A stretch of DNA of 64,000 bases from a virus (lineage: Duplodnaviria; Heunggongvirae; Uroviricota; Caudoviricetes). The notes under the pieces were generated by a model. That model ran no database searches, was not told the origin of the DNA, and worked only from the letters and a program-made list of their open reading frames with translations. The stretch is taken from IMG/VR virus record IMGVR_UViG_3300042562_001169. One strand, written 5' to 3'. The stretch's first letter is position 1. Every line of letters starts with the position of its first letter. Below are positions 20,674 through 50,002 of this stretch, piece by piece. The position numbers were made by a program, and so were the translations under genes.

Positions 20674-20674
20674 T

Positions 20675-21947: not shown

Positions 21948-21949
21948 GT

Positions 21950-22279
21950 ATGAGAATAGTAATCACAGAAAATAAAAGAGATATGTTATTTAGAGAGGAG
22001 TTTAAAAACCTGTTTAATAAATTAACTCCAACAAGAGCCGGACATACCGAGAACATTATCTACATATACTTTGATGAGGTATATGATGATAATGCGGTTA
22101 CAGGGTTGGTATATAGACCAAGTAATCGTCAATTAATTATATATCCGGATTACTTTATTAGTTTAAGAATGTTTGTTTCATCTGAAGAAGAACTAAAGGA
22201 AATGATAGGAATATGTTATGAGGAATTAACTGATAAAATAGTTAGATATTCTTGGATTTGGATAGATAATGAGTTATGA
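21950..22279 (+). CDS. MKIIITE-family paralog (MRIVITENKRDMLFREEF)
   Basis: Tandem array member. Confidence 0.55.
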   Translation: MRIVITENKRDMLFREEFKNLFNKLTPTRAGHTENIIYIYFDEVYDDNAVTGLVYRPSNRQLIIYPDYFISLRMFVSSEEELKEMIGICYEELTDKIVRYSWIWIDNEL

Positions 22280-22605
22280 AAATATTAATCACAGAAAATA
22301 AAAGATACCAATTAGCCTACAAGATATTAGACGATATTTTGAATGGATTGACTCGTGAGGACATTGATTTAAATAAGGATTCCGTATTTAGTAACCAACA
22401 AATAATATTCAGAGATAACAGCGATGACATTTTTATGTGGTGGTCCGAAAAATACGATTTATTGGAAGTTAATAAAGTTATGTGGGAACCACTAAGATTG
22501 TTCTCATTCAGTGGAGAAGAACTTGAAAGAGTTATTCATTGGTGGGTTAAAAATAGATTAAGAATAGAACCGGAGGAGATTAATTTAATTGGTGACTATT
22601 ATTAA
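22276..22605 (+). CDS. MKIIITE-family paralog (MKILITENKRYQLAYKILDD... C-term HWWVKNRLRIEPEEI)
   Basis: Tandem array member. Confidence 0.55.
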   Translation: MKILITENKRYQLAYKILDDILNGLTREDIDLNKDSVFSNQQIIFRDNSDDIFMWWSEKYDLLEVNKVMWEPLRLFSFSGEELERVIHWWVKNRLRIEPEEINLIGDYY

Positions 22606-24810: not shown

Positions 24811-24822
24811 ATATTTATAGTT

Positions 24823-25593
24823 ATGAACTTACACGAAGATATACAAAGAATAAGACAAATGATGATTTCTGAGGAGATGGTCCAATCAGATGCGTGGAAA
24901 TCAATCAAAAAAACATTAGACATTCTTAAAAAGAAAAAGAAAGTTTTAATCTTAAGTTGTTCCAATAGATATAATTGGGATGAAAAAAACCTTGACATAC
25001 CAAAATCAAAGATGATTGCAATGTATCTTAACGATGAGTTAAAAGACTCAGTGTTAATTGATGTTTCCGAACTTAACATTGTTCCTTGTGAGGGGAATGT
25101 ATCAAGAAAAGACGGGAACAGTTGTGGATTACTTAAATCTATGCTCAAAGATAAGAAAAAGAATCCATCCGGAGACCATAGATGTTGGGCAAGTTATAAC
25201 AATCCAAAGGATGAGTTATGGAAGATATCCAAAGAGTTATTTGAGTCAGATGCTGTTGTATTCTTTAGTTCAATTAGATGGGGACAAACCAATATGTTCT
25301 ATCAGAATTTAATTGAGCGATTGACTTGGATTGAGAACAGACACGCAACATTGGGGGAATCAAATCTTGTTAAAGATATTGAGACAGGATTCATTTGTGT
25401 TGGACAGAATTGGAATGGTGAGAACGTAACTGAAACACAGAAAGAAGTTCATAAGTTTTATGGATTCAAACCAAACAATGACTTGTATTGGAATTGGCAA
25501 TATACCAAAGATGTGAATGATGAAACTCAAAAATCATATAAGGATTCACACAAGAAGTTTATTAAAGATACAAAATTACCTGAAGATAAATAA
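24823..25593 (+). CDS. flavodoxin-like-fold NAD(P)H oxidoreductase-like protein carrying the MNLHEDIQRIRQMM family leader
   Basis: KKVLILSCSNRYNWDEKNL and ESDAVVFFSSIRWGQTNMFYQNLIERL resemble the FMN-reductase/Flavodoxin_2 family motifs. Confidence 0.45.
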   Translation: MNLHEDIQRIRQMMISEEMVQSDAWKSIKKTLDILKKKKKVLILSCSNRYNWDEKNLDIPKSKMIAMYLNDELKDSVLIDVSELNIVPCEGNVSRKDGNSCGLLKSMLKDKKKNPSGDHRCWASYNNPKDELWKISKELFESDAVVFFSSIRWGQTNMFYQNLIERLTWIENRHATLGESNLVKDIETGFICVGQNWNGENVTETQKEVHKFYGFKPNNDLYWNWQYTKDVNDETQKSYKDSHKKFIKDTKLPEDK

Positions 25594-26318
25594 TGAACTT
25601 ACGACATGACATAAAAAGAATATTAAGGGAAGAAACAAATAAAGATTTAACTTCGGTAATAGAAATGTTATTAGAGGGATTTGTTAATGACCACAAAGAC
25701 ATTCTTTGTAAGGTTGAGGTTAAGCACCCGGACAAGAGAACCAAACTACCACATTCGGATAATGTTTATGAGAATTACAGAGCAACATTTTATTTAATTG
25801 CTCATAAAGGTGGGTATTCAACAACAAGAGCTCAATTGATGGATAACGTAATGAATGAGGTGTGGGATTTGGTATATAATTATACCGGACAGAAATTAGA
25901 TATGTTTACCAAACACGTAAAGAGTTGTGACGATATTATAAAAGAGAGTAAAGATAATAGTATTTCTGATATGATAAAAACTTTGGGGGTTTCTGATGCC
26001 ATTAAGTATTTTGGGAATTACTACACAATTGAGCCATACTTAAAAGTGGTTGATAAAGTTAATTTTATTAAAGAAAAAGTTAGAGAATTAAGTGATGATG
26101 GTAGTGGTGTTGGTTTACACGAGATAAATGAAGAGCCACTTCATTATAGTGATGAAGATGGGGAGGAACATCAAATAGAATGGTTAGGACTAACAAGTGT
26201 AGACATTAGTGTATATGAAGATGAGTATAGTGGTCATTTAAGGGACTATTATTCTAAGTATGAAAGTTTACCTGTGCAAATAATTGAGGAATTGGTTGAG
26301 ATATTATTAAACCACTAA
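25593..26318 (+). CDS. family paralog (MNLRHDIKRILREETNKD)
   Basis: Tandem array member, coupled start. Confidence 0.5.
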   Translation: MNLRHDIKRILREETNKDLTSVIEMLLEGFVNDHKDILCKVEVKHPDKRTKLPHSDNVYENYRATFYLIAHKGGYSTTRAQLMDNVMNEVWDLVYNYTGQKLDMFTKHVKSCDDIIKESKDNSISDMIKTLGVSDAIKYFGNYYTIEPYLKVVDKVNFIKEKVRELSDDGSGVGLHEINEEPLHYSDEDGEEHQIEWLGLTSVDISVYEDEYSGHLRDYYSKYESLPVQIIEELVEILLNH

Positions 26319-26321
26319 GAT

Positions 26322-26867
26322 ATGAATTTAAACGAGAACATACATAGAATCCATCAGATGATGGGTGTAGTGAGTGAAGATGTGAGTCCAAACACTGTTA
26401 AAACAATAATTGATATATTAGGTATTAGAGATGCTATTAATTATTATGGGGGTTATGAGAACCTTAAAAAATATCTAAATTTGGTTTATGATAGGAAGAG
26501 TGGTAAATGGGTGCACGCGAGTACATTACAGACCAATCCTGTTGATTTAAATACTATTACATCAAGAGAAGATAAGATTGAGTTTATTAAGGATACAATT
26601 TTTACTCAATACTACGGATTGTTTACTTATGGAGATGAAGGTTGGGACGAGAGTGATTATTCTGTGTTAGAGAGTACTGAAACTTATGAAAAGGTAGCAT
26701 TTACATACTATACTGATGAATTAAATGTAACAACATTTTATAGAAATGAGAATGGTGAGTTTTCATCTCAAACCGAAAATGATGACCATAGTGAAACAAT
26801 TAAATATGAGGATTTACCGGATGATATGATTAATAACGCATTTGAGTTTATAGCTAAAAAAATTTAA
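26322..26867 (+). CDS. family paralog (MNLNENIHRIHQMMGVVSED)
   Basis: Tandem array member. Confidence 0.5.
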   Translation: MNLNENIHRIHQMMGVVSEDVSPNTVKTIIDILGIRDAINYYGGYENLKKYLNLVYDRKSGKWVHASTLQTNPVDLNTITSREDKIEFIKDTIFTQYYGLFTYGDEGWDESDYSVLESTETYEKVAFTYYTDELNVTTFYRNENGEFSSQTENDDHSETIKYEDLPDDMINNAFEFIAKKI

Positions 26868-26869
26868 TT

Positions 26870-27328
26870 ATGAATTTAAACGAGAACATACATAGAATCC
26901 ATCAGATGATGGGGATTATCAATGAGAATAAAGTGGTTGATGTTGTTCAAGAAATGGGGTTATACCAAGCCACTCGTTATTTTGGGGGTTATGACAAAGT
27001 TACAAAATTAATGGGGGATTATGTGTTCTCAAATGAAGAAATGATTGATTTTATTAGAGAGGCTATAAAACATTTAGCTTACAAACATAATTCAACCGGG
27101 ATATCTACGTATGAATTAAATATGAATTCTATTCCATATGGTTCTCCTGATGAGGAGTTACATCAAATTGAGTATTTCAACCCGGAGTATGTTACCATAG
27201 ATGTTTATGGTGGTGAAGAGTATGAAAGACACAGAAGTAGTTATACTGAACGATATGAGGATTTGGATGATAATACATTAGATGAGGTTTTCCTGTTTAT
27301 GGTTGACGCAGTAGAACACTACAAATAG
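26870..27328 (+). CDS. family paralog (MNLNENIHRIHQMMGIINEN)
   Basis: The first 15 residues are identical to those of the previous ORF. Confidence 0.5.
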   Translation: MNLNENIHRIHQMMGIINENKVVDVVQEMGLYQATRYFGGYDKVTKLMGDYVFSNEEMIDFIREAIKHLAYKHNSTGISTYELNMNSIPYGSPDEELHQIEYFNPEYVTIDVYGGEEYERHRSSYTERYEDLDDNTLDEVFLFMVDAVEHYK

Positions 27329-27330
27329 AT

Positions 27331-27744
27331 ATGAGTTTACAAGATACCATAAGAAGAATATTAAGAGAGGAATCCTATTCTCCGGCGAGTGATGAATATA
27401 CTCCGGGGGAATATATTGTTCATAAATCAAATCCTATATGGAGAGACAACATAGAACTTACCGGATTACAAACATCGGTGGGGGAATGTTATCAATCACA
27501 CGTCGGTGACGATGAAGAATGTAAACCATCCATATTTGCAACAGATTCATTAGATGAAAAAGATATGTTTGATTCCACATATGACGATGACATTTGGATT
27601 ATCAATACGGAATGTGCCGGGGTTACTTGGTATAAAGACAAACATTTTGATGGTGGATATTACAAACATCATATAGTTACATTCGAGAACATATCACCGG
27701 ACTGTCTTAGATTATTATATAAAGGAACGGGGAAAAGTTATTAA
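27331..27744 (+). CDS. family paralog (MSLQDTIRRILREESYSPA)
   Basis: Tandem array member. Confidence 0.5.
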   Translation: MSLQDTIRRILREESYSPASDEYTPGEYIVHKSNPIWRDNIELTGLQTSVGECYQSHVGDDEECKPSIFATDSLDEKDMFDSTYDDDIWIINTECAGVTWYKDKHFDGGYYKHHIVTFENISPDCLRLLYKGTGKSY

Positions 27745-28128: not shown

Positions 28129-28482
28129 TTAATCAATATGATATTTAGTGATATGATATCTACCACATTTATTACAATGCCAAGTAGTATATACAACCTT
28201 TTCAACGTGTAGATTATATCTTTCCATAAACCAAGGGATAAAGATATCGTTTATATCATAACCACTTGTAACACCAAACATAGATACTAATTGATTTGAT
28301 ATCTCCTCAGATAATTCAACTATTCCATTATCACGATTAAATGTGAAAGACATATCGTCACCACTATCTTTATAGATAATAAATCTATGACCAACGGAAT
28401 ACTTCCTTAAGTTACCATAGTCCATATCCAACCATTTGGTAACGACATTTTTTCTCTTGTTCTCTGTGATTATTACTTTCAT
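28129..28482 (-). CDS. MKIIITE-family paralog (MKVIITENKRKNVVTKWLDMDYG; C-term PWFMERYNLHVEKVV plus CNKCGRYH ribbon)
   Basis: Carries both the N-terminal and the C-terminal family motifs. Confidence 0.55.
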   Translation of the reverse strand: MKVIITENKRKNVVTKWLDMDYGNLRKYSVGHRFIIYKDSGDDMSFTFNRDNGIVELSEEISNQLVSMFGVTSGYDINDIFIPWFMERYNLHVEKVVYTTWHCNKCGRYHITKYHID

Positions 28483-28784
28483 ATTTGTTCTACTCTATGA
28501 CATTTCTTGGCTCTAAACCCAAACTTTTTATTACCCCAATCCAATAACAACTCACTAACTTCATCGTTATCAAATCCGAACATACTACGGATAAAATCCC
28601 ATATTTCATTTAAAACATAGAATCCTTTTACTCTACTGTTGTAAAGCATTTTGAACATTCCCTTATCGGATATGAATACTCCTTCGTGTGAGGGGAATAT
28701 CATCTTTTTTAAGTCGGGATATTCCTCTTCTAACCAATTAATGGCGAGACGGATTCGTTTGTTCTCTGTGATTATAATCTTCAT
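28479..28784 (-). CDS. MKIIITE-family paralog (MKIIITENKRIRLAINWLEEEYPD)
   Basis: Coupled to 28129-28482. Confidence 0.55.
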   Translation of the reverse strand: MKIIITENKRIRLAINWLEEEYPDLKKMIFPSHEGVFISDKGMFKMLYNSRVKGFYVLNEIWDFIRSMFGFDNDEVSELLLDWGNKKFGFRAKKCHRVEQI

Positions 28785-29671: not shown

Positions 29672-29700
29672 ACCTCACCAATTAAAGGTGGGGTTTTTTA
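29672..29700 (+). terminator. rho-independent terminator
   Basis: cctcaccaattaaaggtgggg followed by tttttt. Confidence 0.7.
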
Positions 29701-30581
29701 TTATAAGATAAAATACTAAACGATAAATCTATTCGTTCATAGTCCTACACTCCGTTCCGGAATTCACTCATAGTTTCATCCTTTACTATTTTCTTATGTA
29801 TAAGAAATCCATTTATTTATACACGTCAACTTCCATATGTATAAAAAACTCAATAATTTATACATAACAGTTTACAGTTTACTATAAACAGTCAATAGTA
29901 AACAATCCCCCCACTTATACCGGGGGAACAGAGTTCCCCCCTCTGAAGAAGGGGACAATAAAGGGACACGATTAGTTATCCGGTATGGTGTTCATTATTA
30001 ATGAATGTTCATTTGCAATGAACAATAAGATTAAATGAACATTGTAATGGATATTACGGTAACTTGTATTACGGTATCGATTAAAAAGTTATGTTTTGTA
30101 TCAATACAGTCAGTTTTAAACTCACAAGAGTGATACGAAACATAAGTTTTAATGGTATTTTGTGTCTCTATGGTGTCCCATATATAAATCATTTAGTTCG
30201 TCCATTGTAGGGTATTTAATTGTCCCCTAACGGTTCGTTGAAGTAATCTTCCTAACACCTAACGGTTCCCACGCATCATACACCATTACTGACATTTATC
30301 GCTGGGAAACACCTATAGTAAAATAATTAGTCCTGAGAGTATCGTCAGGGGGAAAAAATTGACTTCTCACTATGCTGGAACACAATAATGGTGGGAGAAA
30401 GTGGTAAACTAAGGTAAGTCTGTGGTATTAAAAGGGGGAAAAGGATTATCCCCAATGACGAAAGAGACTGACATTTTGTCAAAAACAAGAATTTTAACAT
30501 AAAAAGTTATTAACAATTCCCCCTGACAGTGTTGATAAGTGGATTGTTGATAACTATATTTAGAAAAAGTTATTAACAATT

Positions 30582-30875
30582 ATGGTACCAAAACAATACT
30601 TAACCGGATTTACCCCTACTGTCAGTGTGTCAGGTGATACATATATAGTGGATTATGAGATAGGGGAATGTGTATACACCTATTCGAGGGTGGGGAAAAG
30701 AATAAAACAGGAGGTCCTTCAACTTATCAAATGTGATATGTGGAAGGTGATTACATTAATTAATGAGGACAACCAATTAGACGAGGGGGATTATAGGGAT
30801 ATCAATATGGAAATCCGGAATCATTCCCTACGTTATGTGACTGAGTTTATAAATGGTCAGAGTCTTCATCTATAA
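30582..30875 (+). CDS. hypothetical protein (island gene, atypical codon usage)
   Basis: ORF inside the C-tract-rich island. Uses ccc/ggg/cta codons that are rare elsewhere in the window. Confidence 0.35.
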   Translation: MVPKQYLTGFTPTVSVSGDTYIVDYEIGECVYTYSRVGKRIKQEVLQLIKCDMWKVITLINEDNQLDEGDYRDINMEIRNHSLRYVTEFINGQSLHL

Positions 30876-31326
30876 TAGTTCTCTTCCACCACTTCAGGAA
30901 CTTGTTATCCGGAGAAAGGTGGGGGATGATAAGTTTGTCTATCAATATCATTATGATGGATAGAGAACCCATTACCATTAGGAAGATTAAAAATGTCAAC
31001 ATAGTTTATATTATTAAGAGTTACCGGTGATAATCACCGTCAATTAGTAAAGATACAAATAAATTATGACATTCTCAACAAAAGGGGGGATTGTTTAATA
31101 ATAATATTAAATAAAAAAAATAAACCCTTAGTGTGATTATGAGATTCGTAATAAAATGGGGGATTTATATAAAAAATATAAAGCAGGTTGGAGTCTACTC
31201 TTCCACCACTCGGTCCGCCCCCTGTCGGGTTGATTACCGATTCAGTGATACAAATATACGACTAATAATTTACACCACCAAACAAAACCGGGGATTATTT
31301 AATATTATTTCAATATATTTATCTGT

Positions 31327-31809
31327 ATGGCAAAAGAAGAAACACCAAAGGACATTACCCCAAAGAAAAGAAGGGGAATAGATATTGCAGTCAATGGACT
31401 AAGAAAGACATATCCATTTGTAATAGGGTATGAGGATGACCCGGGAGACCAATACGCAGCATCACACTACATTGATTTAATAATAGACCTACAGAAACTA
31501 TCTGACTATATGGATGTTCCTGTTAATCCCTATTGGGTGAACTTCGCAAGTCATCCGGACTATAGAAGGATATACTCCTTATGGTCCTACCTGAAGTTCC
31601 CCGAGGAAATTGAGGTTACATATGATAGAGACATATCAAACCATCCCGGATATAAATTGGGGAAGGATGTAATCTATCTACTTGAATCTATATATGAATA
31701 CATCCCCGAGGAATACAAACTGTTCTATGAGTTCACCTCTGAGTTTGCCCCCGACAAACCTATGACACTCCCCGTGACTCTAAAGGTTAACGGATACATT
31801 ATGACATAA
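31327..31809 (+). CDS. hypothetical protein (island gene, atypical codon usage)
   Basis: ORF preceded by atatatttatctgt. ccc/aga/ata-rich codon usage. Confidence 0.45.
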   Translation: MAKEETPKDITPKKRRGIDIAVNGLRKTYPFVIGYEDDPGDQYAASHYIDLIIDLQKLSDYMDVPVNPYWVNFASHPDYRRIYSLWSYLKFPEEIEVTYDRDISNHPGYKLGKDVIYLLESIYEYIPEEYKLFYEFTSEFAPDKPMTLPVTLKVNGYIMT

Positions 31810-31901
31810 GGTCATGTTCATAACCTGTTGATAACTTCTTATCATAAGTTATTAACAACTGTCACCCTGTCATGTTGATAACTTTATTTGGATATATCGA
31901 A

Positions 31902-33239: not shown

Positions 33240-33267
33240 CCCCCGCTTATGTAGTTGGGGGTTTTTT
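33240..33267 (+). terminator. rho-independent terminator
   Basis: cccccgcttatgtagttggggg followed by tttttt. Confidence 0.7.
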
Positions 33268-33324
33268 ATTTGACATTGGGGATATAATTGATTATTCTTT
33301 AATTCCATAAGGTATATAACAATT

Positions 33325-33732
33325 ATGGTAAAAACAAAATCAATTTCGTTTCTCAAATACAATAGGTTTGAGTTCGGAGAACAAATCGTTAGTCAATTCG
33401 TGGTCTTTGAATGTAAGTGGCTATTCTCAATCATCTTCTTTTATTTTCATAAATCTCTTGGTAGTCAGGATAGGTTTCATACCCACGCTTTTAACGCGTG
33501 GTCTGTAAAACTGTTTGGGGGATATGATGAGCACATCTTGGATGACGAGGTTGGTGGGGAATATCATATTGTTAGACGTGAGAAGGTCTTGGTTTACTTC
33601 CCCCGGGATTCGTATCATCGGATATCTAATAGTGATGGATGTATGACGGTATTGTTCTCGGGTCCTTGGAAAAAGACTTGGAAGGAATATGTTAATGGGG
33701 AAGTTGTTCACTACGGTTGGGGTCGGGAATGA
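33325..33732 (+). CDS. hypothetical protein (135 aa; higher GC)
   Basis: ORF followed immediately by copy 1 of the 43-bp GC-rich repeat. Confidence 0.4.
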   Translation: MVKTKSISFLKYNRFEFGEQIVSQFVVFECKWLFSIIFFYFHKSLGSQDRFHTHAFNAWSVKLFGGYDEHILDDEVGGEYHIVRREKVLVYFPRDSYHRISNSDGCMTVLFSGPWKKTWKEYVNGEVVHYGWGRE

Positions 33733-33743
33733 CGGACCTCTGA

Positions 33744-33786
33744 CCACCCGAACTCCCTCCGGTCGTATTCAAATCCCCCCGCCCCC
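33744..33786 (+). repeat. 43-bp GC-rich direct repeat, copy 1 (ccacccgaactccctccggtcgtattcaaatccccccgccccc)
   Basis: 41/43 identical to the copy at 35897-35938. Both copies sit directly after stop codons. Confidence 0.85.
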
Positions 33787-33803
33787 TTTTTTTGAAAAAA
33801 TAT

Positions 33804-35896: not shown

Positions 35897-35938
35897 CCAC
35901 CCGAACTCCCTCCGGTCGATTTCAAATCCCCCCGCCCC
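35897..35938 (+). repeat. 43-bp GC-rich direct repeat, copy 2
   Basis: ccacccgaactccctccggtcgatttcaaatccccccgcccc. Confidence 0.85.
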
Positions 35939-35981
35939 TTTTATTTTGGAGTTGGGGGATATTTATTATAAAAGATATATT

Positions 35982-36314
35982 ATGTTTTCAGCAGGTGGAG
36001 TTTATGTAATGGTAGCAGGAATCCTATTGGGATTAGCTGTTATAGGTGGGTCAGTTTATTATGTTAATAAAATGTTTGCTGATAACACTCAGGAAATATT
36101 GGTTCGGTTTATTTTATTAATATTCACCTCATTGGTTGCGTTATTTATTGTTGATAAGGTAATTGCTTGGCAGGTTAAACTATTGAGTGATGAGCAGAAT
36201 GGGCAATTATTTGATTTGATTAAAACATTGGTGTTAATGATATTCTCGTATTACTTTGGAACTAAAGAAGGAGTTGAAACCAATGGTGACCAAAATAAGA
36301 AAGATAAAGAATGA
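35982..36314 (+). CDS. small membrane protein (3 TM)
   Basis: The ATG at 35982 is preceded by gggggatatttatt. The track start at 35946 lies in the repeat/terminator. Confidence 0.45.
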   Translation: MFSAGGVYVMVAGILLGLAVIGGSVYYVNKMFADNTQEILVRFILLIFTSLVALFIVDKVIAWQVKLLSDEQNGQLFDLIKTLVLMIFSYYFGTKEGVETNGDQNKKDKE

Positions 36315-36616
36315 AAATTATTATAACAGAAGAACAGTATGGTAGAATGTTTAATTCCAAACTTTGGTTAAGACGTAACTATGATTTGGTTAAACAGGAG
36401 TTGAAGGCTACAATGGACTTCACCCGGGACCGTATCTGTGATAAAGATGAATTTGAAAATTTTGAATATTATTTCTTCTCCGTGTTTATGGATTGCCTTC
36501 ACCCTTATTATTATGAGGAAGAGAATTTTGATTATAAGGAATTTCAAACCACGTTAACTGATATGTTCTATGTTGAATGTACCGAGTTTTATTTTAACGG
36601 TAGAGAGAAATGTTAA
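36311..36616 (+). CDS. MKIIITE-family paralog (MKIIITEEQYGRMF)
   Basis: Tandem array member. Confidence 0.55.
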   Translation: MKIIITEEQYGRMFNSKLWLRRNYDLVKQELKATMDFTRDRICDKDEFENFEYYFFSVFMDCLHPYYYEEENFDYKEFQTTLTDMFYVECTEFYFNGREKC

Positions 36617-36650
36617 CACCCCTTTTAAAGTTAAGGGATATTTATTTGAT

Positions 36651-37016
36651 ATGAGAATTATTATAACAGAAAGTAAATTTAAAAGTATGGTTACCAAAAT
36701 GGTTGGGTATGATTTATCCCACCGTATTGAGATGATTACAAGTTGGGAGAATTTAACCGGTTCGGAAAAACATAATGTATTTGGTGATAATAAATCTATT
36801 TTTGTTCAGTATCAAAACCATTATGGTCCGATGTATATATTTTCAAATTTTAAAGGACATAATTATTTGGCTCAAAATCAAAAAGGTAAACTATGGTTTA
36901 TTGTTGATACAAGTACTGGATACGAAATAGATTACTATGATTTTTTACAAATGCTTAATCTTGATATGACGGGTATTAGTTTAAGAAAAATAATCGATGA
37001 ATTTGCTGAAGAATGA
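36651..37016 (+). CDS. MKIIITE-family paralog (MRIIITESKFKSMVTKMVGYD)
   Basis: The ATG at 36651 is preceded by gggatatttatttgat. The track start is upstream, within a hairpin. Confidence 0.55.
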   Translation: MRIIITESKFKSMVTKMVGYDLSHRIEMITSWENLTGSEKHNVFGDNKSIFVQYQNHYGPMYIFSNFKGHNYLAQNQKGKLWFIVDTSTGYEIDYYDFLQMLNLDMTGISLRKIIDEFAEE

Positions 37017-37351
37017 AAATAATAATTACAGAAAGTAAAGTTGGGCAAGTAAAAAATTTAGTACAAGAAATTATTGATGATGAGTTAAATAACTTACGTC
37101 AAGAGGCTGATGAAGAGTGGGGTTTGGGTGAAATGGATGAGATAAATGAGGTTGGTTCTGTTGAAAAGATTGTTGTTGATGAAATAAAAACAACTGATGG
37201 TATTAGTGTTAATGTCAATCTTTATTTAAACACAGATAGAGAAGATTTTGAAATAATTTTACCAATGATTGAATATACTATTGAGCAATGGATTCCTAAT
37301 GCTAAAATTCATATAAACAAAATATATCTAAATGAAAATAATAATTACTGA
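37013..37351 (+). CDS. MKIIITE-family paralog (MKIIITESKVGQVKNLVQEII)
   Basis: Coupled start. Confidence 0.55.
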   Translation: MKIIITESKVGQVKNLVQEIIDDELNNLRQEADEEWGLGEMDEINEVGSVEKIVVDEIKTTDGISVNVNLYLNTDREDFEIILPMIEYTIEQWIPNAKIHINKIYLNENNNY

Positions 37352-37652
37352 GAGACAGAATAATTTATTGATGGAGGATTTACCCATTAGTCTTCGTAGA
37401 CGAATTAATTATAATATTCTTAAAGACCATTTGGATTTTTCCATATTAGAATCCGTTAATCCTTGTGATTATAGTACATTAGGGGATTTTATTGGTGAGA
37501 TGTGTGATATGATGGTTGTGGATTTTTTAGATGATTTTGAATATGATAGCGGTCTAAAAGTTAGTCCAAAAGATAAAGATGATTTTTATTATTTTATGAC
37601 TGATAATTTTGCTGATTACCTTCAAGAATTTTATGATAAACAATGTGCGTAA
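37332..37652 (+). CDS. MKIIITE-family paralog (MKIIITERQNNLLMEDL)
   Basis: Array member. Confidence 0.55.
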   Translation: MKIIITERQNNLLMEDLPISLRRRINYNILKDHLDFSILESVNPCDYSTLGDFIGEMCDMMVVDFLDDFEYDSGLKVSPKDKDDFYYFMTDNFADYLQEFYDKQCA

Positions 37653-37680
37653 CCGATATATTTATATTAAAACAAATTAT

Positions 37681-38172
37681 ATGAAAAAAATTGTAAGATT
37701 AACTGAAGGAGAGTTAACAAATTTAATAAAAAGAATATTAAAGGAGGATTCGACAAAAAATAATTGTCATAAAGAATATACAAACCCTGAATCCAATACA
37801 GACCCATACATATATAGAATGGGTCCGGAATGTATTTGGCAAACTAAAAGTGATAAAACAAAAAAACAAATAGGTAAAGAAATACCTGATTGGATTTCAT
37901 TATATAAAAATGAAAAGGCAAACCAAAAACTTGATAAATGGTTCCCAAACGCTAAATCGGATTGTTCAAAATGTAAAAATGGTGGTATTAAAAAAACCCC
38001 ACCATCTGATTTAATTAAGAAAAAAGTTGATTTAGTTAAGGGTAAAATTGGTGAAAATAAATGTCCTAAAACCATAAATTGTATGCCGTCACCTAATGGT
38101 AAACCTAACCCTTGTGATGATTTTTTTATTAGTTACTGTATCAAATCAGGTAAGACTTCGGCAACATATTAA
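37681..38172 (+). CDS. family paralog with Cys/Lys-rich C-terminus (MKKIVRLTEGELTNLIKRILKED...)
   Basis: ATG at 37681. Combines the LTE-type and ILKE-type leader motifs. Confidence 0.5.
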   Translation: MKKIVRLTEGELTNLIKRILKEDSTKNNCHKEYTNPESNTDPYIYRMGPECIWQTKSDKTKKQIGKEIPDWISLYKNEKANQKLDKWFPNAKSDCSKCKNGGIKKTPPSDLIKKKVDLVKGKIGENKCPKTINCMPSPNGKPNPCDDFFISYCIKSGKTSATY

Positions 38173-38177
38173 TAATT

Positions 38178-38639
38178 ATGAAAAAGAAAATTATAAAATT
38201 AACGGAATCAGATTTAAAAAACATTGTGATGAGAATTATCAATGAACAATTTGATATGGACTACTACGACATTATTTTGGATTTATATAACGAGGTTGGT
38301 CTTGAGGGTATGACTGATGAAGAAATTGAATATTTGAAAAGTGGCGGTGAGAGTAATGTCCCTGAAAGATTTTTGGGTGGAGACTTGGATATTGATTCTG
38401 AGGAATCTGAAGATTTTGGTGGACTTGATAGATTCAAGGAAATTATGGACGGATACAATCATAAGATTGTGGATACCGCTCCCGACGGTAAGTTGAGAGT
38501 TGTCTTTAGAGAAAACCCTGAGATATTGGAAAGACTTGATGGTGTGGTTCCGGAATCATTAATAGAAGTTAGACAAGGACATATAATCATTCTTGTTCCT
38601 GAAAATTGGACGGATGATATTTTCGGAGAAGAAATATAA
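38178..38639 (+). CDS. family paralog, acidic (MKKKIIKLTESDLKNIVMRIINEQ)
   Basis: ORF; terminator downstream. Confidence 0.5.
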   Translation: MKKKIIKLTESDLKNIVMRIINEQFDMDYYDIILDLYNEVGLEGMTDEEIEYLKSGGESNVPERFLGGDLDIDSEESEDFGGLDRFKEIMDGYNHKIVDTAPDGKLRVVFRENPEILERLDGVVPESLIEVRQGHIIILVPENWTDDIFGEEI

Positions 38640-40036: not shown

Positions 40037-40056
40037 ATTGGGGGATATTTATTTAT

Positions 40057-41184
40057 ATGAATATTAAGATAAGTAAAAATCAATACGATAAATTAAAAAA
40101 GAAAATACAATTGACAATTGATTTCCCAAAAGAAATCGTTGTTAGGTTTGGAGGTTTTAAACCCGACGACTATTACCAACCAACATTTGTGTATCTTGAT
40201 GAAATGCCTGAAGATGATATTCTTAAACTAAAAGAGTTAAAAGATAGAAACGAGGGTTTAACCGTTAAACTTAATAATATTTACACAAAAGAAGAATTTG
40301 ATTTCCCGTTGGAAATTATAAATTTCACTAAATCACGAGGTAATCCATACATATTTAAATCAGAATACGAAAAGATTGAATCCGAACTTGAATCCCACGA
40401 ACTTATATTAAGTGCTGATTTATTAAAAAAATCAATTTCAAAATTTCCTCAATTTATGTTGAATACGTTATATGACCTATATCCAAATAATATTGGTAAA
40501 AATAGTTTCATTGATGGTGATGGTATTTGTAATAGTGAAGATGGGTTGATAGATATTCCAAACACAAATGTTCCCGGACAAACTTGGTCAATCCTTAATT
40601 ATTTTGATACCAATCCAATGGTTATCAAAAAACTTATTGAATGGTTTATGCACGGGGTATTTAATAATAATGAGACACCAAAGATAGTTTCTAACGAGAA
40701 ATTTAAGGAATGGATTAAAAATAATTCATCCTCATTGTTTAAAGATGGTGAATACTTGGAGGAACTCGTTAACATTAATCTTAAATCATATAAGTCAGGG
40801 GTAAAAACCGAAAATTCGGCAATTAAAAAATTAACTGAATCACCATTTAATATTGATGGAAAAAACATTAAACAATATTGTTCAGGTTCAAAACAAGATA
40901 GAGTTGATGGTAAAGATATTGAAATAACGACTACTGAAGGTGTTCGTTATGCTCAGATTAAACCATTATCGGGGTATAAGGTTAATGAAATTACAATAGA
41001 AAATAAAATTACAAAAGAATATGAGGTTAACACTTATCAAATGAAAAACTATAAGAGTAAACCAATTCAATATCTTATTTTCTCAAACGCAAAAAATATT
41101 TTAATATTTGAAAATAATAATTACAAAATTATTGGTACCGGTTTAGTAGTGTTTAAAAATCCACCATTATCTAATTTAGATTAA
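40057..41184 (+). CDS. hypothetical 375-aa protein (N-term MNIKISKNQYDKL, leader variant)
   Basis: gggggatatttattt lies before the ATG. Confidence 0.55.
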   Translation: MNIKISKNQYDKLKKKIQLTIDFPKEIVVRFGGFKPDDYYQPTFVYLDEMPEDDILKLKELKDRNEGLTVKLNNIYTKEEFDFPLEIINFTKSRGNPYIFKSEYEKIESELESHELILSADLLKKSISKFPQFMLNTLYDLYPNNIGKNSFIDGDGICNSEDGLIDIPNTNVPGQTWSILNYFDTNPMVIKKLIEWFMHGVFNNNETPKIVSNEKFKEWIKNNSSSLFKDGEYLEELVNINLKSYKSGVKTENSAIKKLTESPFNIDGKNIKQYCSGSKQDRVDGKDIEITTTEGVRYAQIKPLSGYKVNEITIENKITKEYEVNTYQMKNYKSKPIQYLIFSNAKNILIFENNNYKIIGTGLVVFKNPPLSNLD

Positions 41185-41185
41185 T

Positions 41186-41506
41186 ATGAGGGTTATAATT
41201 ACAGAAGATAAAAGGGAACGTCTTATTGATAATTTTTTATCTGAGGAATATGGTGGATTAATCCGATATGAACCTAAAAACAGACCTGACCTTATTTTTT
41301 TTGTAAAAGACACGGGAAAAGACCCTATAAAAAGAGATATTGTATTATTTTACAATAAAGATGACCAATATGCTTTTATTAATTGGAATATTGTGGATAG
41401 TATTAGAATGTTCACCGGTGATGAATGGGACTCAGAACAATTTGTTAAAAGATGGTTAAAGAAAACTTACGGGATTGACCCGATTAAATTATACAACAAT
41501 TTTTAA
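41186..41506 (+). CDS. MKIIITE-family paralog (MRVIITEDKRERLIDNFLSEEYGG; C-term KRWLKKTYGIDPIKL)
   Basis: Array member. Confidence 0.55.
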   Translation: MRVIITEDKRERLIDNFLSEEYGGLIRYEPKNRPDLIFFVKDTGKDPIKRDIVLFYNKDDQYAFINWNIVDSIRMFTGDEWDSEQFVKRWLKKTYGIDPIKLYNNF

Positions 41507-41507
41507 T

Positions 41508-42323
41508 ATGAACAAAAGATTAAAATACTTATCTCTTATTAAGAAATTAATTTCTTGCGAAAGTCGTGAGCAATTATCCGACACTATTAAAGAAATTAAT
41601 GAATTTAATAAAGAATATTCTATTACCTCAACGTCGGAAGAATTTAAAAAATTTGAAATTGCTATTGCAGTAATGAGAGTTAAATTAAAACGTAAACACG
41701 ATATTATAGAAAACCAATTGAGGGGTCAAAAACAAAATAACAAGACTAATATGAAAATAGTAATTACAGAAAGACAAGAAGATTTATTATTCAGTTTACT
41801 AACCGAAGGGGAAAACAAACCAACCAACCCAAAGTTATGGGCACAATGTCTTGCTTGGGCAAGGTCAAGATATAAAGTATGTCCAAGTGCGTATTGTAAT
41901 GGAGCTGCTGCCAAACGATATAAATCAAAAGGTGGTGGATGGAGAAAAAATAAAAAATCCACTAATGAGGCATCAAGTCCAACACAACAAGCGGCGATTG
42001 CCATCAATATGAAGAAGAAAGGGGTTGAACCAAAGAACGAAAATGTTAATGAAGATTTGAAAAGATGGTTTAAGGAGAAGTGGGTTGATGTAAGCAAAAA
42101 AGTTGACGGGAAACATCCACCCTGTGGAAGAAAGGACGCTGATGGTAAGTCATATCCAAAATGTCGTCCATCAAAAAAGGTTTCATCTGAAACACCTAAG
42201 GTGGCTTCATCATATGATAAAGATGAGAAGAAAGCGATGACACAACAAAAACGAAGAGCTGAAAAGAAAGACCCAAAAGTGGGAACAGGAAATAAACCAA
42301 CAATGACACATTACGAAAAATGA
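41508..42323 (+). CDS. MKIIITE-family paralog with Lys/Cys-rich body. The leader (MKIVITERQEDLLF) begins at 41751, and an in-frame 81-codon N-terminal extension runs from 41508.
   Basis: There is no stop codon between 41508 and 41751. Confidence 0.45.
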   Translation: MNKRLKYLSLIKKLISCESREQLSDTIKEINEFNKEYSITSTSEEFKKFEIAIAVMRVKLKRKHDIIENQLRGQKQNNKTNMKIVITERQEDLLFSLLTEGENKPTNPKLWAQCLAWARSRYKVCPSAYCNGAAAKRYKSKGGGWRKNKKSTNEASSPTQQAAIAINMKKKGVEPKNENVNEDLKRWFKEKWVDVSKKVDGKHPPCGRKDADGKSYPKCRPSKKVSSETPKVASSYDKDEKKAMTQQKRRAEKKDPKVGTGNKPTMTHYEK

Positions 42324-42691
42324 AAATAGTGATTACAGAATCTCAATACAACAAACTATTCAACGACTTAGACGATAGTTTTTTTGGAACCGTAGAAGAA
42401 ACCAACTTTGTTGTTGGTGACTTACTGACTGAGGCGGAATATCAGGGACGCAAAGTTCAACTTGGTAAAATTATGCAAGGGGATGTTAAAAAATTCAAAG
42501 TGTATGTTAAGAACGACAAAGGAAATGTTGTTAAGGTTAACTTTGGTTTTGGTGGTAAATCGGCAAAAGGAAAACGAATGGTTATCAAAAAAAATAATCC
42601 GGCTAGAAGAAAATCTTTTAGAGCAAGAATGAATTGTGATAGTCCGGGACCAAGATGGAAAGCAAGATACTGGGCTTGTAGAACTTGGTAA
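42320..42691 (+). CDS. MKIIITE-family paralog, basic (MKIVITESQYNKLFNDLDD)
   Basis: Coupled start. Confidence 0.55.
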   Translation: MKIVITESQYNKLFNDLDDSFFGTVEETNFVVGDLLTEAEYQGRKVQLGKIMQGDVKKFKVYVKNDKGNVVKVNFGFGGKSAKGKRMVIKKNNPARRKSFRARMNCDSPGPRWKARYWACRTW

Positions 42692-42692
42692 T

Positions 42693-43064
42693 ATGGATGT
42701 AAAAATTAAATACGATAAATTGTTTTCCACGTTTGAAAAAATGATGGAAGAGTATTCCAATTTGGACCACACCGAAAAATCTTACGATTCTTGGATTCAG
42801 GAAAAGGGTGGTTATATTGATTTGGATGTTATAAATTTTTATCGCGATATTGAAGAAGATTATGAAGATGATGATTGGGTTATGCAATATCAAGATAGTT
42901 CAGGTGATGAAGGAAGAGATGAAGATTTACCAATATTAAGATATGGTGATGGTTATTCATTTAAATCTGAACAGTCAATGTTTGGGCATCACTTTGATGA
43001 GTTATTAAAAGATTGGTTTGAAAAAGTATACGGGTATAATGTTAAAACAATTGAAAGGATATAA
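42693..43064 (+). CDS. family-like acidic protein (MDVKIKYDKLF...; C-term DWFEKVYGYNVKTIERI)
   Basis: ATG at 42693, right after the upstream stop. The track start at 42636 overlaps the upstream gene. Confidence 0.5.
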   Translation: MDVKIKYDKLFSTFEKMMEEYSNLDHTEKSYDSWIQEKGGYIDLDVINFYRDIEEDYEDDDWVMQYQDSSGDEGRDEDLPILRYGDGYSFKSEQSMFGHHFDELLKDWFEKVYGYNVKTIERI

Positions 43065-43456
43065 TGAATATAGAAGATGAAATAGTTCCCAAAATGATTA
43101 CCAAGTATATGAATACTTTTGGTAATAAAAAAATAAATGAAATGACTTGTTCCGACACAAAGTATAACTTCAGTGTTCATATTGTTAATTTGTATAAAGG
43201 TGAGGAACGTTGGAAGTTTGATGATAGTTGGAGAAATACATACGACTATGTTCTTGTTATTGATTCTGAGATTCCGGTCCCTAATAATATCTGTGATGAG
43301 TATAAAGAAAAACATTTTAAGGATGAAAGAGCTTTAAAATACCCGTTATTGTGGGCGTTTGACACTGAAATGATAGATGATTTAAAATATATGGGGGTTG
43401 ATTTAACCTCTTGGTCATTTGGTAAAGCGGGGTTACATTTTAAAAATAGAGAATAG
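43064..43456 (+). CDS. hypothetical protein
   Basis: Coupled ORF. Confidence 0.5.
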   Translation: MNIEDEIVPKMITKYMNTFGNKKINEMTCSDTKYNFSVHIVNLYKGEERWKFDDSWRNTYDYVLVIDSEIPVPNNICDEYKEKHFKDERALKYPLLWAFDTEMIDDLKYMGVDLTSWSFGKAGLHFKNRE

Positions 43457-46892: not shown

Positions 46893-47285
46893 ATGAAAAT
46901 TATAATAACTGAGAGTAAATTAAATCAAGCGGTCATTGATTACCTGAACGAGACATACGATACCAATAACATTGGTTGGACATATGGTATTGATGATTGG
47001 GGTAATGAAGTGGACTACGCAATTGAATTTTATACTGACGATTATGATGAAGGTGATAATACTTTATTTAGATGGTATGGTGAAGATTATTGGGATAGTG
47101 ATGATGCTGATGGTTGGGGTGAACCATATCGTAGCGAATTAAAAAGTAAATCTCCTTTGTTAATATTTGAAAATGATGATGTTTTTATTGCTTTAAACGG
47201 TTATTTTGGTGATAAATGGAAACAACCATTTATTGATTGGTTTTGGGATAAATTCCACGTACCGGTTAAGACAATCAATAAGTAG
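46893..47285 (+). CDS. MKIIITE-family paralog (MKIIITESKLNQAVIDYLNETYD; C-term DWFWDKFHVPVKTINK)
   Basis: ATG at 46893 preceded by gagatatttattgat. The track start at 46791 overlaps the upstream gene. Confidence 0.55.
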   Translation: MKIIITESKLNQAVIDYLNETYDTNNIGWTYGIDDWGNEVDYAIEFYTDDYDEGDNTLFRWYGEDYWDSDDADGWGEPYRSELKSKSPLLIFENDDVFIALNGYFGDKWKQPFIDWFWDKFHVPVKTINK

Positions 47286-47796: not shown

Positions 47797-48915
47797 ATGA
47801 AAATTAAGATTACCGAAACTCAATATAAAAATTTAGACGAAGCCGTTGGTGTCCCAACCAATATTATTTCCGTCTCCCAACAACTATACGATAAGATGAT
47901 GTTGGAACTTAGACCCAACGCCAATTTAAACGCTCAATTCCAAAAAACAATTACCTTAAAAGGTGATTTTCAAATTAACGAATATAAGTTTGACACAATA
48001 AAATTATCTTTTAATGTTCACGATTTGGATGATTATGAATTTGACGGTATAGAAAAACCTAAAGTGTTGTTAAATGGTATGACACACCACGGGAAGGTTA
48101 AGATGAATGCTAAGTTTAATTATGAGGCAAACCAAAATATGAACAAAATTGAATTGTCAATTACTTTTGTTGTTGATAATGATGCGACAAGTCAAGACGT
48201 TATTGATGAGTTTAAGAAAGAACGAACATTAATGATTTCAAGTTTGGCTCACGAACTAAAACACGCTTATGATGAATCTGTTAACCCAATAGTTCAAACA
48301 CATAAAAGAGTTGATTATAATATTGGGACTCAAAGAAGATTTGGGAATATCCCACCGTTAAATAAATTATTAAATTATATGTATTTTGCTCACACCACAG
48401 AAAATTTGGTTAGAGCAACTGAAGTATATGCCGCGTTGGAAGAGAGTGGAATCACAAAGGAAGATTTTCTTAAATTTATCACAAACCATAAAGTTTACGT
48501 TGCCTATAAAGATGGGATTAATTTAACTTACGAGGGATTAAAAGAAGATTTAAAGAATATTATTCCTCAAATTAAACAAACTTTTGACGATAGTGGTATT
48601 AGTTATCCGGAGGACGCATCTGATGATGAGATGGTTGAAGTGACATTAGAGGTATTCTTTAAAACATTATTACAATGGAAAGCTGGTGGTATGAGAGATT
48701 TTTTAACCGATGATTTTATGGAAGAACTATTTGGATTCAGAGGTGCTAAACAAAGATATTTTGATAAGTATCTTAGTAAGATTACTCGATTTGGTAACGA
48801 CTACGAGAAATTCTTCAAATATGAGATTAATCAAACAAGAAACATTTGTCTTAAGATGACAAAAAAATTAAGTAAATTATATTCCTTAATAAAAGACAAA
48901 AACCCCCAACAATAG
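47797..48915 (+). CDS. 372-aa protein with family leader (MKIKITETQYKNL) and HExxH motif (LAHELKHAYDE): putative zinc metallohydrolase
   Basis: Motifs read from the translation. The fold is not established. Confidence 0.5.
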   Translation: MKIKITETQYKNLDEAVGVPTNIISVSQQLYDKMMLELRPNANLNAQFQKTITLKGDFQINEYKFDTIKLSFNVHDLDDYEFDGIEKPKVLLNGMTHHGKVKMNAKFNYEANQNMNKIELSITFVVDNDATSQDVIDEFKKERTLMISSLAHELKHAYDESVNPIVQTHKRVDYNIGTQRRFGNIPPLNKLLNYMYFAHTTENLVRATEVYAALEESGITKEDFLKFITNHKVYVAYKDGINLTYEGLKEDLKNIIPQIKQTFDDSGISYPEDASDDEMVEVTLEVFFKTLLQWKAGGMRDFLTDDFMEELFGFRGAKQRYFDKYLSKITRFGNDYEKFFKYEINQTRNICLKMTKKLSKLYSLIKDKNPQQ

Positions 48916-48933: not shown

Positions 48934-49266
48934 TTAAGATTTAAATTTTTCTCCTTTAACTTTCACCCATTCCAAATCACCATCTAAAATTAAGACATCA
49001 CTATATGATGGGACATCTTTAGTGTTTTCCTCGGTGTGTTTATCATCATAATCATCCCCAATAGATGGGATAACTTTAACAAAATCAGAACCTTCTTCGG
49101 TGATTGTTATTTTCCATTCACCATTATATAAAATAGTTCCTTTAGTCCCTAATGAAGTTTTAAACTTGATAGGTTTTCTCTCGGATGAGTAAGCCTCGAC
49201 CTCATCAATAATTTGTCCGTCAATCTCAATTAAATCATCGGACGCTCCGTAAATCCTTGTTATCAT
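48934..49266 (-). CDS. hypothetical protein
   Basis: ORF downstream of clpP on the minus strand. Confidence 0.45.
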   Translation of the reverse strand: MITRIYGASDDLIEIDGQIIDEVEAYSSERKPIKFKTSLGTKGTILYNGEWKITITEEGSDFVKVIPSIGDDYDDKHTEENTKDVPSYSDVLILDGDLEWVKVKGEKFKS

Positions 49267-49267: not shown

Positions 49268-50002
49268 TTATCGTTTTAAGATTTCTTTAGAGTAAAATTC
49301 ATCAAACCCAACCATCATTTCTGTCATAGATTTGTTTGTCTCTAATCCAACGATGTTATCAATTAAACCAAACTTTTTCGCCTCATCTGAGTTGAACCAT
49401 TTGTCATTTCTTGATGACTCATACATCTCGTCAAATGTTTTCCCACAATTCTCCGCCAAGATTTTGAATAACATATAGTTATACTTCTCCGCCTCCAATT
49501 GGTTGATACGAGTGTCCTGAACATTTCCTTGTGTTCCGTGAGATACCATATGTGTCATAATTTTTGAGAAGATTAATGAACTTCTTTTTCCTTTGGCTCC
49601 TGACGATACTAATACGGAACCCATAGACGCACACATCCCAACATTTAATGTTGCAACATCCGGTTTGATGTAGTTCATAGTATCTCGGATTCCAAGACCT
49701 GACAATACGGAACCTCCCGGAGTGTCAAGATACATACTGATATCTTTTTTATCTGTGGTTTCCAAGAAGATAAGTTGAGCTTGTATGATAGATGCCATCT
49801 GACTCTCAACCGGTCCGGAAACCCAAATAATTCTGTCCATCATAAGTCGGGAGAAAATATCAAGTTGAGTTGCTCTCATCTCTCTTTCTTCCAAAATGTA
49901 TGGAGTAACACTCTCGATGTGTTTTTGGTAGTAATCCAAATTAAGTCCTGAAATACCTCTGTCGCTCATCGCGAACTTTTGAAACTCTTTTCCGTAATTC
50001 AT
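49268..50002 (-). CDS. clpP: ATP-dependent Clp protease proteolytic subunit ClpP
   Basis: Canonical blocks: LDTPGGSV, catalytic Ser in GMCASMGS and catalytic His in MTHMVSHG. Full-length match to bacterial ClpP. Confidence 0.85.
   Translation of the reverse strand: MNYGKEFQKFAMSDRGISGLNLDYYQKHIESVTPYILEEREMRATQLDIFSRLMMDRIIWVSGPVESQMASIIQAQLIFLETTDKKDISMYLDTPGGSVLSGLGIRDTMNYIKPDVATLNVGMCASMGSVLVSSGAKGKRSSLIFSKIMTHMVSHGTQGNVQDTRINQLEAEKYNYMLFKILAENCGKTFDEMYESSRNDKWFNSDEAKKFGLIDNIVGLETNKSMTEMMVGFDEFYSKEILKR

Follow-up and report, generated by a model that had tools for sequence, protein, structure and literature searches.

A shared MKIIITE-type N-terminal leader on many genes of a huge Bacteroidota phage, a portable tag and candidate T4-like capsid-targeting signal

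We analyzed a 64,000-nucleotide (nt) stretch of phage DNA (IMG/VR record IMGVR_UViG_3300042562_001169; hereafter the window), in which many otherwise unrelated genes begin with the same short leader, typified by M(K/R)IIITE. We conclude that this leader is a portable, modular, exposed address tag that acts at the peptide level. Circumstantial evidence from sequence motifs and analogy tentatively favors a capsid-targeting and cleavage tag of the bacteriophage T4 type, to which we give somewhat less than an even chance. The first-pass annotation had proposed this function from motif analogy. Its proposal gained support from a protease in the lineage, selection on the peptide, unrelated cargo, a free N-terminal overhang and a motif shared with head genes, the last of these being the strongest new evidence, and lost some to the scale of tagging, the nature of the cargo and conservation beyond Glu7 (E7), the first putative cut position.

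The four tandem plus-strand open reading frames (ORFs) that had been described at 36311-37652 were confirmed, each opening with M(K/R)IIITE. They lie in an operon that continues into two longer variants of the leader.

35959-35967 (+), ATATTTATT motif heading the operon 35982-38639; more copies at 36638-36646 and 37658-37666
36311-36616 (+), leader ORF 1, 101 aa, opening MKIIITEEQYG; its ATG overlaps the stop of the membrane-protein gene 35982-36314
36651-37016 (+), leader ORF 2, 121 aa, opening MRIIITESKFK, with GATATTTATTTGAT directly 5'; the longest-ORF call begins at 36570
37013-37351 (+), leader ORF 3, 112 aa, opening MKIIITESKVG, isoelectric point (pI) 4.2; its start overlaps the ORF 2 stop
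37332-37652 (+), leader ORF 4, 106 aa, opening MKIIITERQNN; MKIIITERQNNLLME followed by D
37681-38172 (+), longer leader variant beginning MKKIVRLTEGEL; MKKIVRLTEGELTNLIKRILKE followed by D
38178-38639 (+), longer leader variant beginning MKKKIIKLTESDL; MKKKIIKLTESDLKNIVMRIINE followed by Q

The four leader ORFs had no match in Pfam or PHROGs, and BLAST found no match between any of them, although by eye a shared RRR..NY...C...MD pattern makes ORF 4 look like a distant paralogue of ORF 1. There are 185 homologues of ORF 1, in which MK[IYF]IITEEQY is kept. The exact ORF 2 protein belongs to a 74-member cluster and the exact ORF 3 protein occurs on 79 contigs. The exact proteins of these ORFs are called as genes on 79-92 public contigs, the longest of 272,437 bp; this and the 185 and 141 homologues of the 36311 and 46893 proteins show that the ORFs are real genes. 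The phage from which the window derives has a genome of at least 272 kb.

Genes in the window were called by a simple longest-ATG ORF procedure and leader classes were set by regular expressions, with some false positives admitted. In this census 18 ORFs opened with an M[KR][ILV][ILV]ITE-like sequence, the count of ORFs with the leader at Met1 came to 19, and under relaxed patterns the leader or a related N-terminal variant was found on 32 of the 138 called ORFs (~23%). The tripeptide ITE fell within the first 10 residues of 13/137 ORFs, versus 8/1586 internal 10-residue windows. Bare [LI]xE was merely twofold enriched at N-termini (22% versus a 10% background), indicating that the information sits in the whole leader and not in the tripeptide.

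The leader module spans ~7-16 residues and consists of MKIIIT-E followed by a short helix, x-Q-(Y/L/F)-x-x-(L/I)-hydrophobic-x-E, as in the peptide MKIIITESQYKKLLES, where E7 and E16 are the putative cut positions. A DNA pattern for residues 1-7 gave at least 149 matches in IMG/VR, of which at least 141 are the starts of ORFs of 50 aa or more; the figures given here for IMG/VR leaders are those among the matches listed. In 133 distinct proteins, picked on residues 1-7 only, Q9 was conserved in 89%, Y/L/F10 in 73% and L/I13 in 91%. A second hydrophobic-x-E ended at residue 15 or 16 in 53% of these leaders, and the residue after it was most often S, D, N or A. The earlier description of the leader as an ITE heptapeptide was accurate in placing ITE at residues 5-7 and too short in extent, as the conserved module runs to ~16 residues.

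Three kinds of (I/L)xE leader had been treated as one class. The MNLNEN leader is present at 26322 and 26870 and the ...ILREE leader at 20675, 25593 and 27331, but the positions of the motifs are not equivalent: ITE/LTE marks the start of the leader helix and ILRE/IINE its end. Both positions occur together in single proteins, such as that at 37681 (LTE-9 and LKE-22), and orthologues of a head-module family, YMFFSNLEQ...HDWAQDHI, carry either leader form. Judged from sequence, the ITE, LNE and LRE classes are parts of one bipartite module, a strand-like KIIIT and a Glu followed by an amphipathic helix ending ...ILxE.

Synonymous codons of the leader vary freely, so selection acts on the peptide. 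Codon usage matched that of the genome for Lys (p = 1.0), Thr (p = 0.18) and Glu (p = 1.0), the sole shift being that of Ile codons to ATA (p = 0.007). Substitutions within the leader are of the I/V/L and K/R kind. I5 and E7 are invariant in both orthologue alignments, one of which holds 112 orthologues, and among orthologues that share 50-60% identity the leader and the structural core are equally conserved. The leader is also retained by operon-internal genes whose start codons overlap the preceding stop and which lack their own promoter. The free synonymous sites and this retention within operons ruled out conservation at the DNA level, whether as a promoter, an initially transcribed sequence or a recombination box.

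The proteins behind the leader are diverse. A set of 132 IMG/VR MKIIITE proteins fell into 59 cargo clusters, and the Pfam domains found on leader proteins included Phage_lysozyme, Hydrolase_2 with PG_binding_1, Phage_L5_gp82, Pterin_4a, a sigma-70 ECF factor, Peptidase_M78 and LRR. A single paralogue family was rejected on these unrelated domains and clusters and on the lack of BLAST matches among the four tandem ORFs. When the leader-bearing lysozyme was searched by tblastn, only ordinary endolysins without the leader were found. By eye some cargo has a DHH-, GIY-YIG- or Vsr-like (homing-nuclease-like) look; Pfam gave no match for it, and we do not claim such a relationship.

Structure models place the leader outside the cargo. 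In the AlphaFold model of the 36311 protein (predicted local distance difference test, pLDDT, 90), residues 16-98 form a helical bundle and residues 1-6 are coil, with a mean pLDDT of 55 over the first ten residues; a Foldseek comparison of this model with viral structures gave nothing significant. The model of the 46893 protein (pLDDT 90.4) likewise has residues 1-6 as coil, with a first-ten mean of 69. In both models residues 1-6 are thus predicted to be a free overhang outside the cargo fold.

Tagged genes are tied to one promoter-like motif, TATTTATW, which we class as 'late' by its association with structural genes. In 80 head-module loci TATTTAT[AT] was found within 50 nt upstream of the protease gene in 42/42 cases, the scaffold gene in 28/28, the portal gene in 18/25 and the TerL gene in 8/10, against a background of 1.7% per 50-nt window. 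In the cultured Flavobacterium phage vB_FspM_immuto it stands before the genes for TerL, portal, sheath, tube, baseplate hub, tape measure and tail spike. It also resembles the T4 late promoter, TATAAATA. When leader genes of the window were assigned by the motif at the head of their operon, 30/32 had TATTTATW, 0/32 had TAnnTTTG only and 2/32 had neither (odds ratio 61, Fisher p = 2e-14). The association recurred in 119 independent IMG/VR loci, where 33% of the genes in TATTTATW operons were leader genes versus 13% elsewhere (odds ratio 3.2, p = 2e-17).

The longer form ATATTTATW, or ATATTTAT(A/T), occurs 26 times in the window versus 12.9 expected. Often just 3-5 nt separate its end from the ATG, a spacing suggestive of late mRNAs that are leaderless or nearly so. 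The other motif class corresponds to the Bacteroidetes housekeeping -7 element, TAnnTTTG, which is fitted by TATCTTTG; this sequence has 20 copies in the window versus 4.5 expected and precedes non-leader genes. Example sites of the two classes are at 8086, 23061(-), 32201, 33827, 39215, 45774(-) and 61734. A fixed 17-mer, GATATTTATTTGAT, was discarded as the unit since there are only 2 exact copies; the real unit is the shorter TATTTAT[AT]. The structural proteins (major capsid, scaffold, portal, TerL, protease and sheath) have no leader, which argues against a general expression enhancer. A 188-aa MKIIITE protein of the IMG/VR locus L111 is an ECF-type sigma factor (Sigma70_r2 and r4, E 1e-11 to 3e-17) that could be the reader of TATTTATW promoters or an injected takeover factor.

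The lineage is one of T4-like huge phages of Bacteroidota, the bS21 phage group. Homologues of gp18, gp20, gp21 and gp23 were found by tblastn, with T4 queries from AF158101, on IMG/VR contigs that carry MKIIITE genes. A module common to 80 further loci comprises TerL, portal, a 235-aa gene, bS21 (opposite strand), a 150-aa gene, a gp21-type protease, scaffold and major capsid; PHROGs gave nothing useful for the head-module neighbors. The bS21 gene lies within the module, on the opposite strand in most loci (L031, 9625-9891; L055, 3276-3467(-); L131, 5240-5431(-)), and connects the contigs that bear leaders with the bS21 phage clades already published. Those phages reach 331 kb, have predicted hosts among Flavobacteriia and other Bacteroidetes, and transcribe their structural genes jointly in late-stage replication (PMC9723584); the head-module architecture described there matches the module in the 80 related loci. 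The window itself had no megablast match among GenBank phages, and the nearest of them by ClpP similarity are the huge uncultured phage LR745206 (635 kb, 60% identity) and the Lak megaphages.

The protease of the head module aligns with T4 gp21, and its best GenBank matches are annotated gp21. It has 5444 homologues at E < 1e-30, on contigs up to ~324 kb, the best 120 of these 5444 all being PF03420. The first-pass annotation had advised a search for a gp21-type or ClpP-type prohead protease. The former was found as a PF03420 protease in the T4-type head module of the lineage, although none lies in the window itself, so the lineage is not without a protease of the kind expected to cleave at IxE. 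Three window proteins have homologues no more than 6 kb from the protease and major capsid genes at loci L130, L131, L135 and L143 (g053, 84% identical; g087, 86%; g088, 73-79%), and the protease and scaffold genes are separated by leader genes at L031, L038 and L051. A DUF5872-fused family that adjoins the major capsid gene has N-termini of 8-47 residues in which a junction, (I/L/V)-x-E followed by (A/V/G)-T, is conserved in 7 sequences; this is suggestive only.

The ClpP-type proposal failed. The window does encode a ClpP, at 49268-50002(-) (PF00574, 177 bits), whose Ser, His and Asp align with the triad of solved ClpPs. It is canonical and close to cellular ClpPs, with no head genes nearby, and was rejected as a prohead protease for its canonical triad and its place outside the head module. 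It has an N-terminal extension of ~30-45 residues and a 110-aa gene downstream (48934-49266), and its relatives are in L081 (88% identical), LR745206 (60%) and Lak phages (~43%).

If the leader is a capsid-targeting tag, tagged genes would be transcribed from the promoter type of the head genes, so that their products would be made while proheads assemble. The exposed hydrophobic overhang would bind the scaffolding core, as the T4 capsid-targeting sequence (CTS) does, and a gp21-family prohead protease would cut after the Glu of I-T-E, and after the later hydrophobic-x-E where present, freeing the cargo inside the head for delivery with the DNA at the next infection. We infer each of these steps, from synthesis alongside proheads through core binding, cleavage and packaging to ejection. 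In the fullest version, freshwater T4-like megaphages would make about a hundred late accessory proteins, load them by one 7-16-residue tag, trim them with a gp21-type protease and inject them; on the analogy with T4 we regard this as possible, with the balance of doubt against it. Among the cargo would then be a sigma factor, peptidoglycan hydrolases and peptidases, along with numerous small proteins that have no known function. By rough arithmetic from T4 copy numbers, ~100 protein species at tens of copies each are physically possible in such a capsid.

Several findings weigh against a capsid-targeting role. Tagging of ~23% of window ORFs is far above any known packaged set and is without precedent. 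The median pI of leader proteins is 5.4, the same as that of other ORFs, whereas the T4 internal proteins are basic, and some cargo plausibly works in the producing cell, such as the sigma factor and the pterin-4a dehydratase, and some looks GIY-YIG- or Vsr-like by eye. Conservation continues past E7 (E8 91% and Q9 99% in family A1; K9 and L10 at least 90% in family A3), and in the AlphaFold model of the 46893 family a helix over residues 7-21 starts at E7 and is integrated in the domain fold. The gp21-type protease was not found in the 64-kb window and is known from close relatives, so it is not placed on the window's own molecule. The maturation site of the lineage's major capsid protein is also ambiguous: ...ENQAS(F/H/Y)LINE followed by A is kept in its N-terminal region, but in a weak global alignment the T4 sequence GSFLTE followed by A aligns with GSFET, so the cut could fall after LINE, before A, or after GSFE, before T. 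Finally, TATTTATW could also serve a middle class of genes.

We weighed four other explanations of the leader. The strongest, which we nonetheless consider rather unlikely, is a docking or assembly tag for some other late partner, with neither packaging nor cleavage. By beta-strand addition its exposed KIIIT strand would join a common hub or another copy of the strand, and would gather late accessory proteins in a shared complex, compartment or membrane site of the producing cell. A conserved, hydrophobic, unstructured overhang on unrelated cargo behind a common late-type promoter is what such a tag would look like. Conservation beyond E7 into a helix that is sometimes folded suits a permanent element better than a removed one, and a sigma factor or pterin dehydratase could work in the producing cell. 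No candidate hub was identified, however; the invariant Glu after the strand and the frequent second hydrophobic-x-E have no obvious docking role and do fit gp21 specificity, and it is for a cleaved tag that T4-like phages offer a precedent. An N-terminal degron that hands tagged proteins over for timed turnover by a Clp-type protease, in which ClpP from host or phage would work with host ClpX or ClpA, strikes us as improbable. The canonical ClpP of the window, with its intact Ser/His/Asp triad, and the unstructured N-terminus would suit it, and M-K-I-I-I fits the first five positions of ClpX N-motif-2, which Flynn et al. in 2003 reportedly defined as Met-basic-hydrophobic x3-X5-hydrophobic. 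The likeness to ClpX degrons, of which N-terminal classes are known (PMC12723719), ends with that unstructured Met-basic-hydrophobic start: position 11 is K, R or N and not hydrophobic in ~65% of leaders, the conserved T6, E7 and Q9 are no part of the motif, and the link to turnover is by analogy. Programmed turnover is also harder to explain for a tag tied to late-type operons, and a ClpP homologue was found only in L081 and L004 among 1.7 Mb of loci, most of them short fragments.

The leader might also be an expression element, either an A/U-rich start or an N-terminal 'ramp' peptide that boosts initiation in hosts without Shine-Dalgarno sequences, and might work with near-leaderless late mRNAs and the phage bS21, which this lineage encodes (PMC9723584); we hold this to be as improbable as the degron. 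The short distance of 3-5 nt that often separates the promoter-like motif from the ATG fits such a role, as do codons 2-5, which are purely A/T at positions 1-2, with Ile shifted to ATA, and the megaphage LR745206 has a different shared start, MKYLKxFE. Yet the leader is absent from the late genes presumed to have the highest expression, those for the major capsid, scaffold, portal, sheath and TerL, the A/T content at third positions of Lys, Thr and Glu codons does not exceed that of the genome, and substitutions preserve hydrophobicity (I/V/L) and not nucleotides. Conservation of T6, E7, Q9 and L13 and the tagging of operon-internal genes point the same way. Least credible of all, and in our view very improbable, is that the leader has no shared function and is either a relic of common ancestry within a single very large and rapidly diverging family of paralogues or a by-product of the shuffling of cassettes where genes start. 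True paralogues do occur among the window members, and at many leader genes the terminator, promoter motif and start codon form a compact cassette like the mobile regulatory cassettes of T4-type phages (PMC2839356). The cargo spans unrelated Pfam folds, however, to which the tag must have been joined, the leader matches the structural core in conservation across 50-60%-identical sequences, and DNA identity is not maintained.

The capsid-targeting reading leans on the comparison with T4, in which the CTS of IPI, IPII and IPIII and the propeptide of Alt are taken off by the prohead protease gp21. T4, with roughly 280 genes, has ~4 tagged proteins per genome, versus tens of tagged genes per 64 kb here. 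In both lineages a short N-terminal peptide with an (I/L)-x-E end is found on otherwise unrelated proteins, and both combine a protease of the gp21 family with a portal, scaffold and major capsid module of the T4 type. The opening MELITE that had been given for Alt is correct (MELITELFDE in the T4 record AF158101), and it shares I-T-E with MKIIITE. The CTS of IPII and IPIII, which open MKTYQEFIAEA in the same record, has no similarity to the leader beyond M-K and the final x-E. T4 proteins of this kind are made during prohead assembly, and the tagged genes here share the promoter motif of the head genes. The T4 internal proteins are basic, while the leader cargo is mostly acidic and includes enzymes and a sigma factor, and the module here is conserved past its first Glu. 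T4 gp21 cleaves after L/I-x-E, the CTS of T4 internal proteins is 10-19 residues long and Alt sheds a 7-residue propeptide (PMC9026906); T-even internal proteins are diverse, with only the CTS conserved (PMC3012670). The resemblance to the T4 CTS lies in logic, length, position and the I-T-E tripeptide and not in overall sequence.

Other known systems offer partial parallels. In the phiKZ-like phages phiKZ, 201phi2-1 and SPN3US, giant myoviruses that also have a gp21-related protease, many of the proteins that are packaged and ejected undergo processing at a short x-E motif, and there are paralogues with identical N-termini (PMC5694885). Their propeptides are mostly >100 residues, end in (S/A/G)-x-E and occur on 8-19 processed proteins, unlike the Ile-rich leader of 7-16 residues on far more genes; SPN3US has ~50 head proteins in total, versus ~23% of window ORFs tagged. 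The PeSLs, the mobile promoter cassettes of T4-type phages, are likewise compact units of regulation placed where small accessory genes start, in plastic genome regions, and offer a plausible route by which the tag could have spread. They are conserved DNA with early promoters, whereas here the peptide and not the DNA is conserved and the motif is that of structural genes. In the 635-kb relative LR745206 (locus L004, LR745206.1 55122-95859) there is no MKIIITE; ~10 of 65 ORFs open with MKYLKxFE or MKYIxSF-like sequences, for example MKYLRTYEEI, MKYLKKFDSINES and MKYIQSFNEKF. Separate megaphage lineages may each have their own shared N-terminal tag. A literature search for the leader sequence MKIIITE yielded no paper in the library searched, a search on conserved or shared N-terminal tags in huge phages found nothing relevant, and no virion proteome of the cultured relative immuto was found in the literature.

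Should the tag act like the T4 CTS, many "dark" small genes of huge Bacteroidota phages would share one fate: their products would be synthesized late, travel in the head and begin to act in the cell infected next. By analogy it would be a new form of the T4 CTS, with a different sequence and a far larger tagged gene set, in an abundant uncultured phage group; this group is very common, its protease alone having 5444 close homologues in public data. It would explain the takeover-looking genes behind a head-gene promoter, mark hypothetical proteins as candidate injected effectors or anti-defense factors, and provide a short peptide for loading foreign proteins into such capsids and a packaging tag for engineering Bacteroidota phages. 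Metaproteomes of viral fractions could then show N-termini from residue 8. If the cargo is injected as well, the pre-packaged takeover proteome would exceed that of every other known phage by a wide margin. Independently of packaging, a tag on 15-25% of genes that is tied to one promoter class is an undescribed organizing principle.

Leader genes also occur elsewhere in the window, in three arrays or operons, a minus-strand pair and single genes.

476-994 (+), leader ORF, 172 aa, MKLIITESKHK
4480-5565 (+), leader ORF, 361 aa, MRIIIKENQYF; ATATTTATAAAT upstream
16361-16846 (-), helix-type leader ORF, MKELIRQILREY; ATATTTATT upstream
20150-22605 (+), array of seven leader ORFs, MKLIITE, MKILIKE, MKELIKKILREE, MKVLITE, MKVLIKE, MRIVITE and MKILITE; ATATTTATT at 20138-20146
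24823-27744 (+), array of five ORFs with helix-only leader variants, MNLHEDIQRIRQMM, MNLRHDIKRILREE, MNLNENIHRIHQMMG twice and MSLQDTIRRILREE; ATATTTATA at 24811-24819
28129-28784 (-), two leader ORFs, MKIIITENKR and MKVIITENKR; GATATTTATTTGAT upstream
40057-43456 (+), operon of MNIKISKNQYDKL (375 aa), MRVIITEDKR, a DUF5872 protein with an internal MKIVITE at 41751, and MKIVITESQYNKL; ATATTTATT at 40045-40053
46893-47285 (+), leader ORF, 130 aa, MKIIITESKLNQ; GATATTTATTGAT upstream; 141 homologues
47797-48915 (+), leader ORF, 372 aa, MKIKITETQYKNL; GATATTTATAGTT upstream
58121-58888 (-), leader-variant ORF, 255 aa, MSKKLLITEEEKNNI; GTATTTATA upstream

Several members of the array at 20150-22605 are a true paralogue family, and a tblastn search with a paralogue-family member of the window gave no match. 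In L131, ~2.5 kb (within 6 kb) separates the major capsid gene from an 84%-identical homologue of the first gene of the 24823-27744 array. Homologues of the 40057-43456 operon, 73-86% identical, adjoin head modules in L130, L131, L135 and L143. Within that operon, the MKIVITE of the gene at 41508-42323 is internal, at codon 82 of a 271-aa ORF in which DUF5872 is the C-terminal part. Relatives of this protein either start at the leader (L102) or are fused to other N-terminal parts (L131, L135), and the internal leader may reflect a gene fusion or an alternative start.

The window has a GC content of 31%, with genes mostly on the plus strand, and no tRNAs or Rfam matches were found in its 64 kb. 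In addition to the canonical ClpP it encodes a thymidylate synthase, ThyA (55392-56663), which is unusually long at 423 aa; its Pfam match falls in two stretches over residues 6-337, which suggests an insertion or an additional C-terminal domain. A 50-nt direct repeat, 92% identical between its copies at 33744-33793 and 35897-35946, lies just upstream of two gene starts and reads CCACCCGAACTCCCTCCGGTCG.ATTCAAATCCCCCCGCCCC followed by a T-run. It had no tRNA or Rfam match and may be a terminator or a small structured element. Coding density is low at 29700-31900 and 33250-33340, where there are only short doubtful ORFs and AAAGTTATTAACAA boxes occur at 30497, 30560 and 31839; this could be a regulatory or origin-like region.

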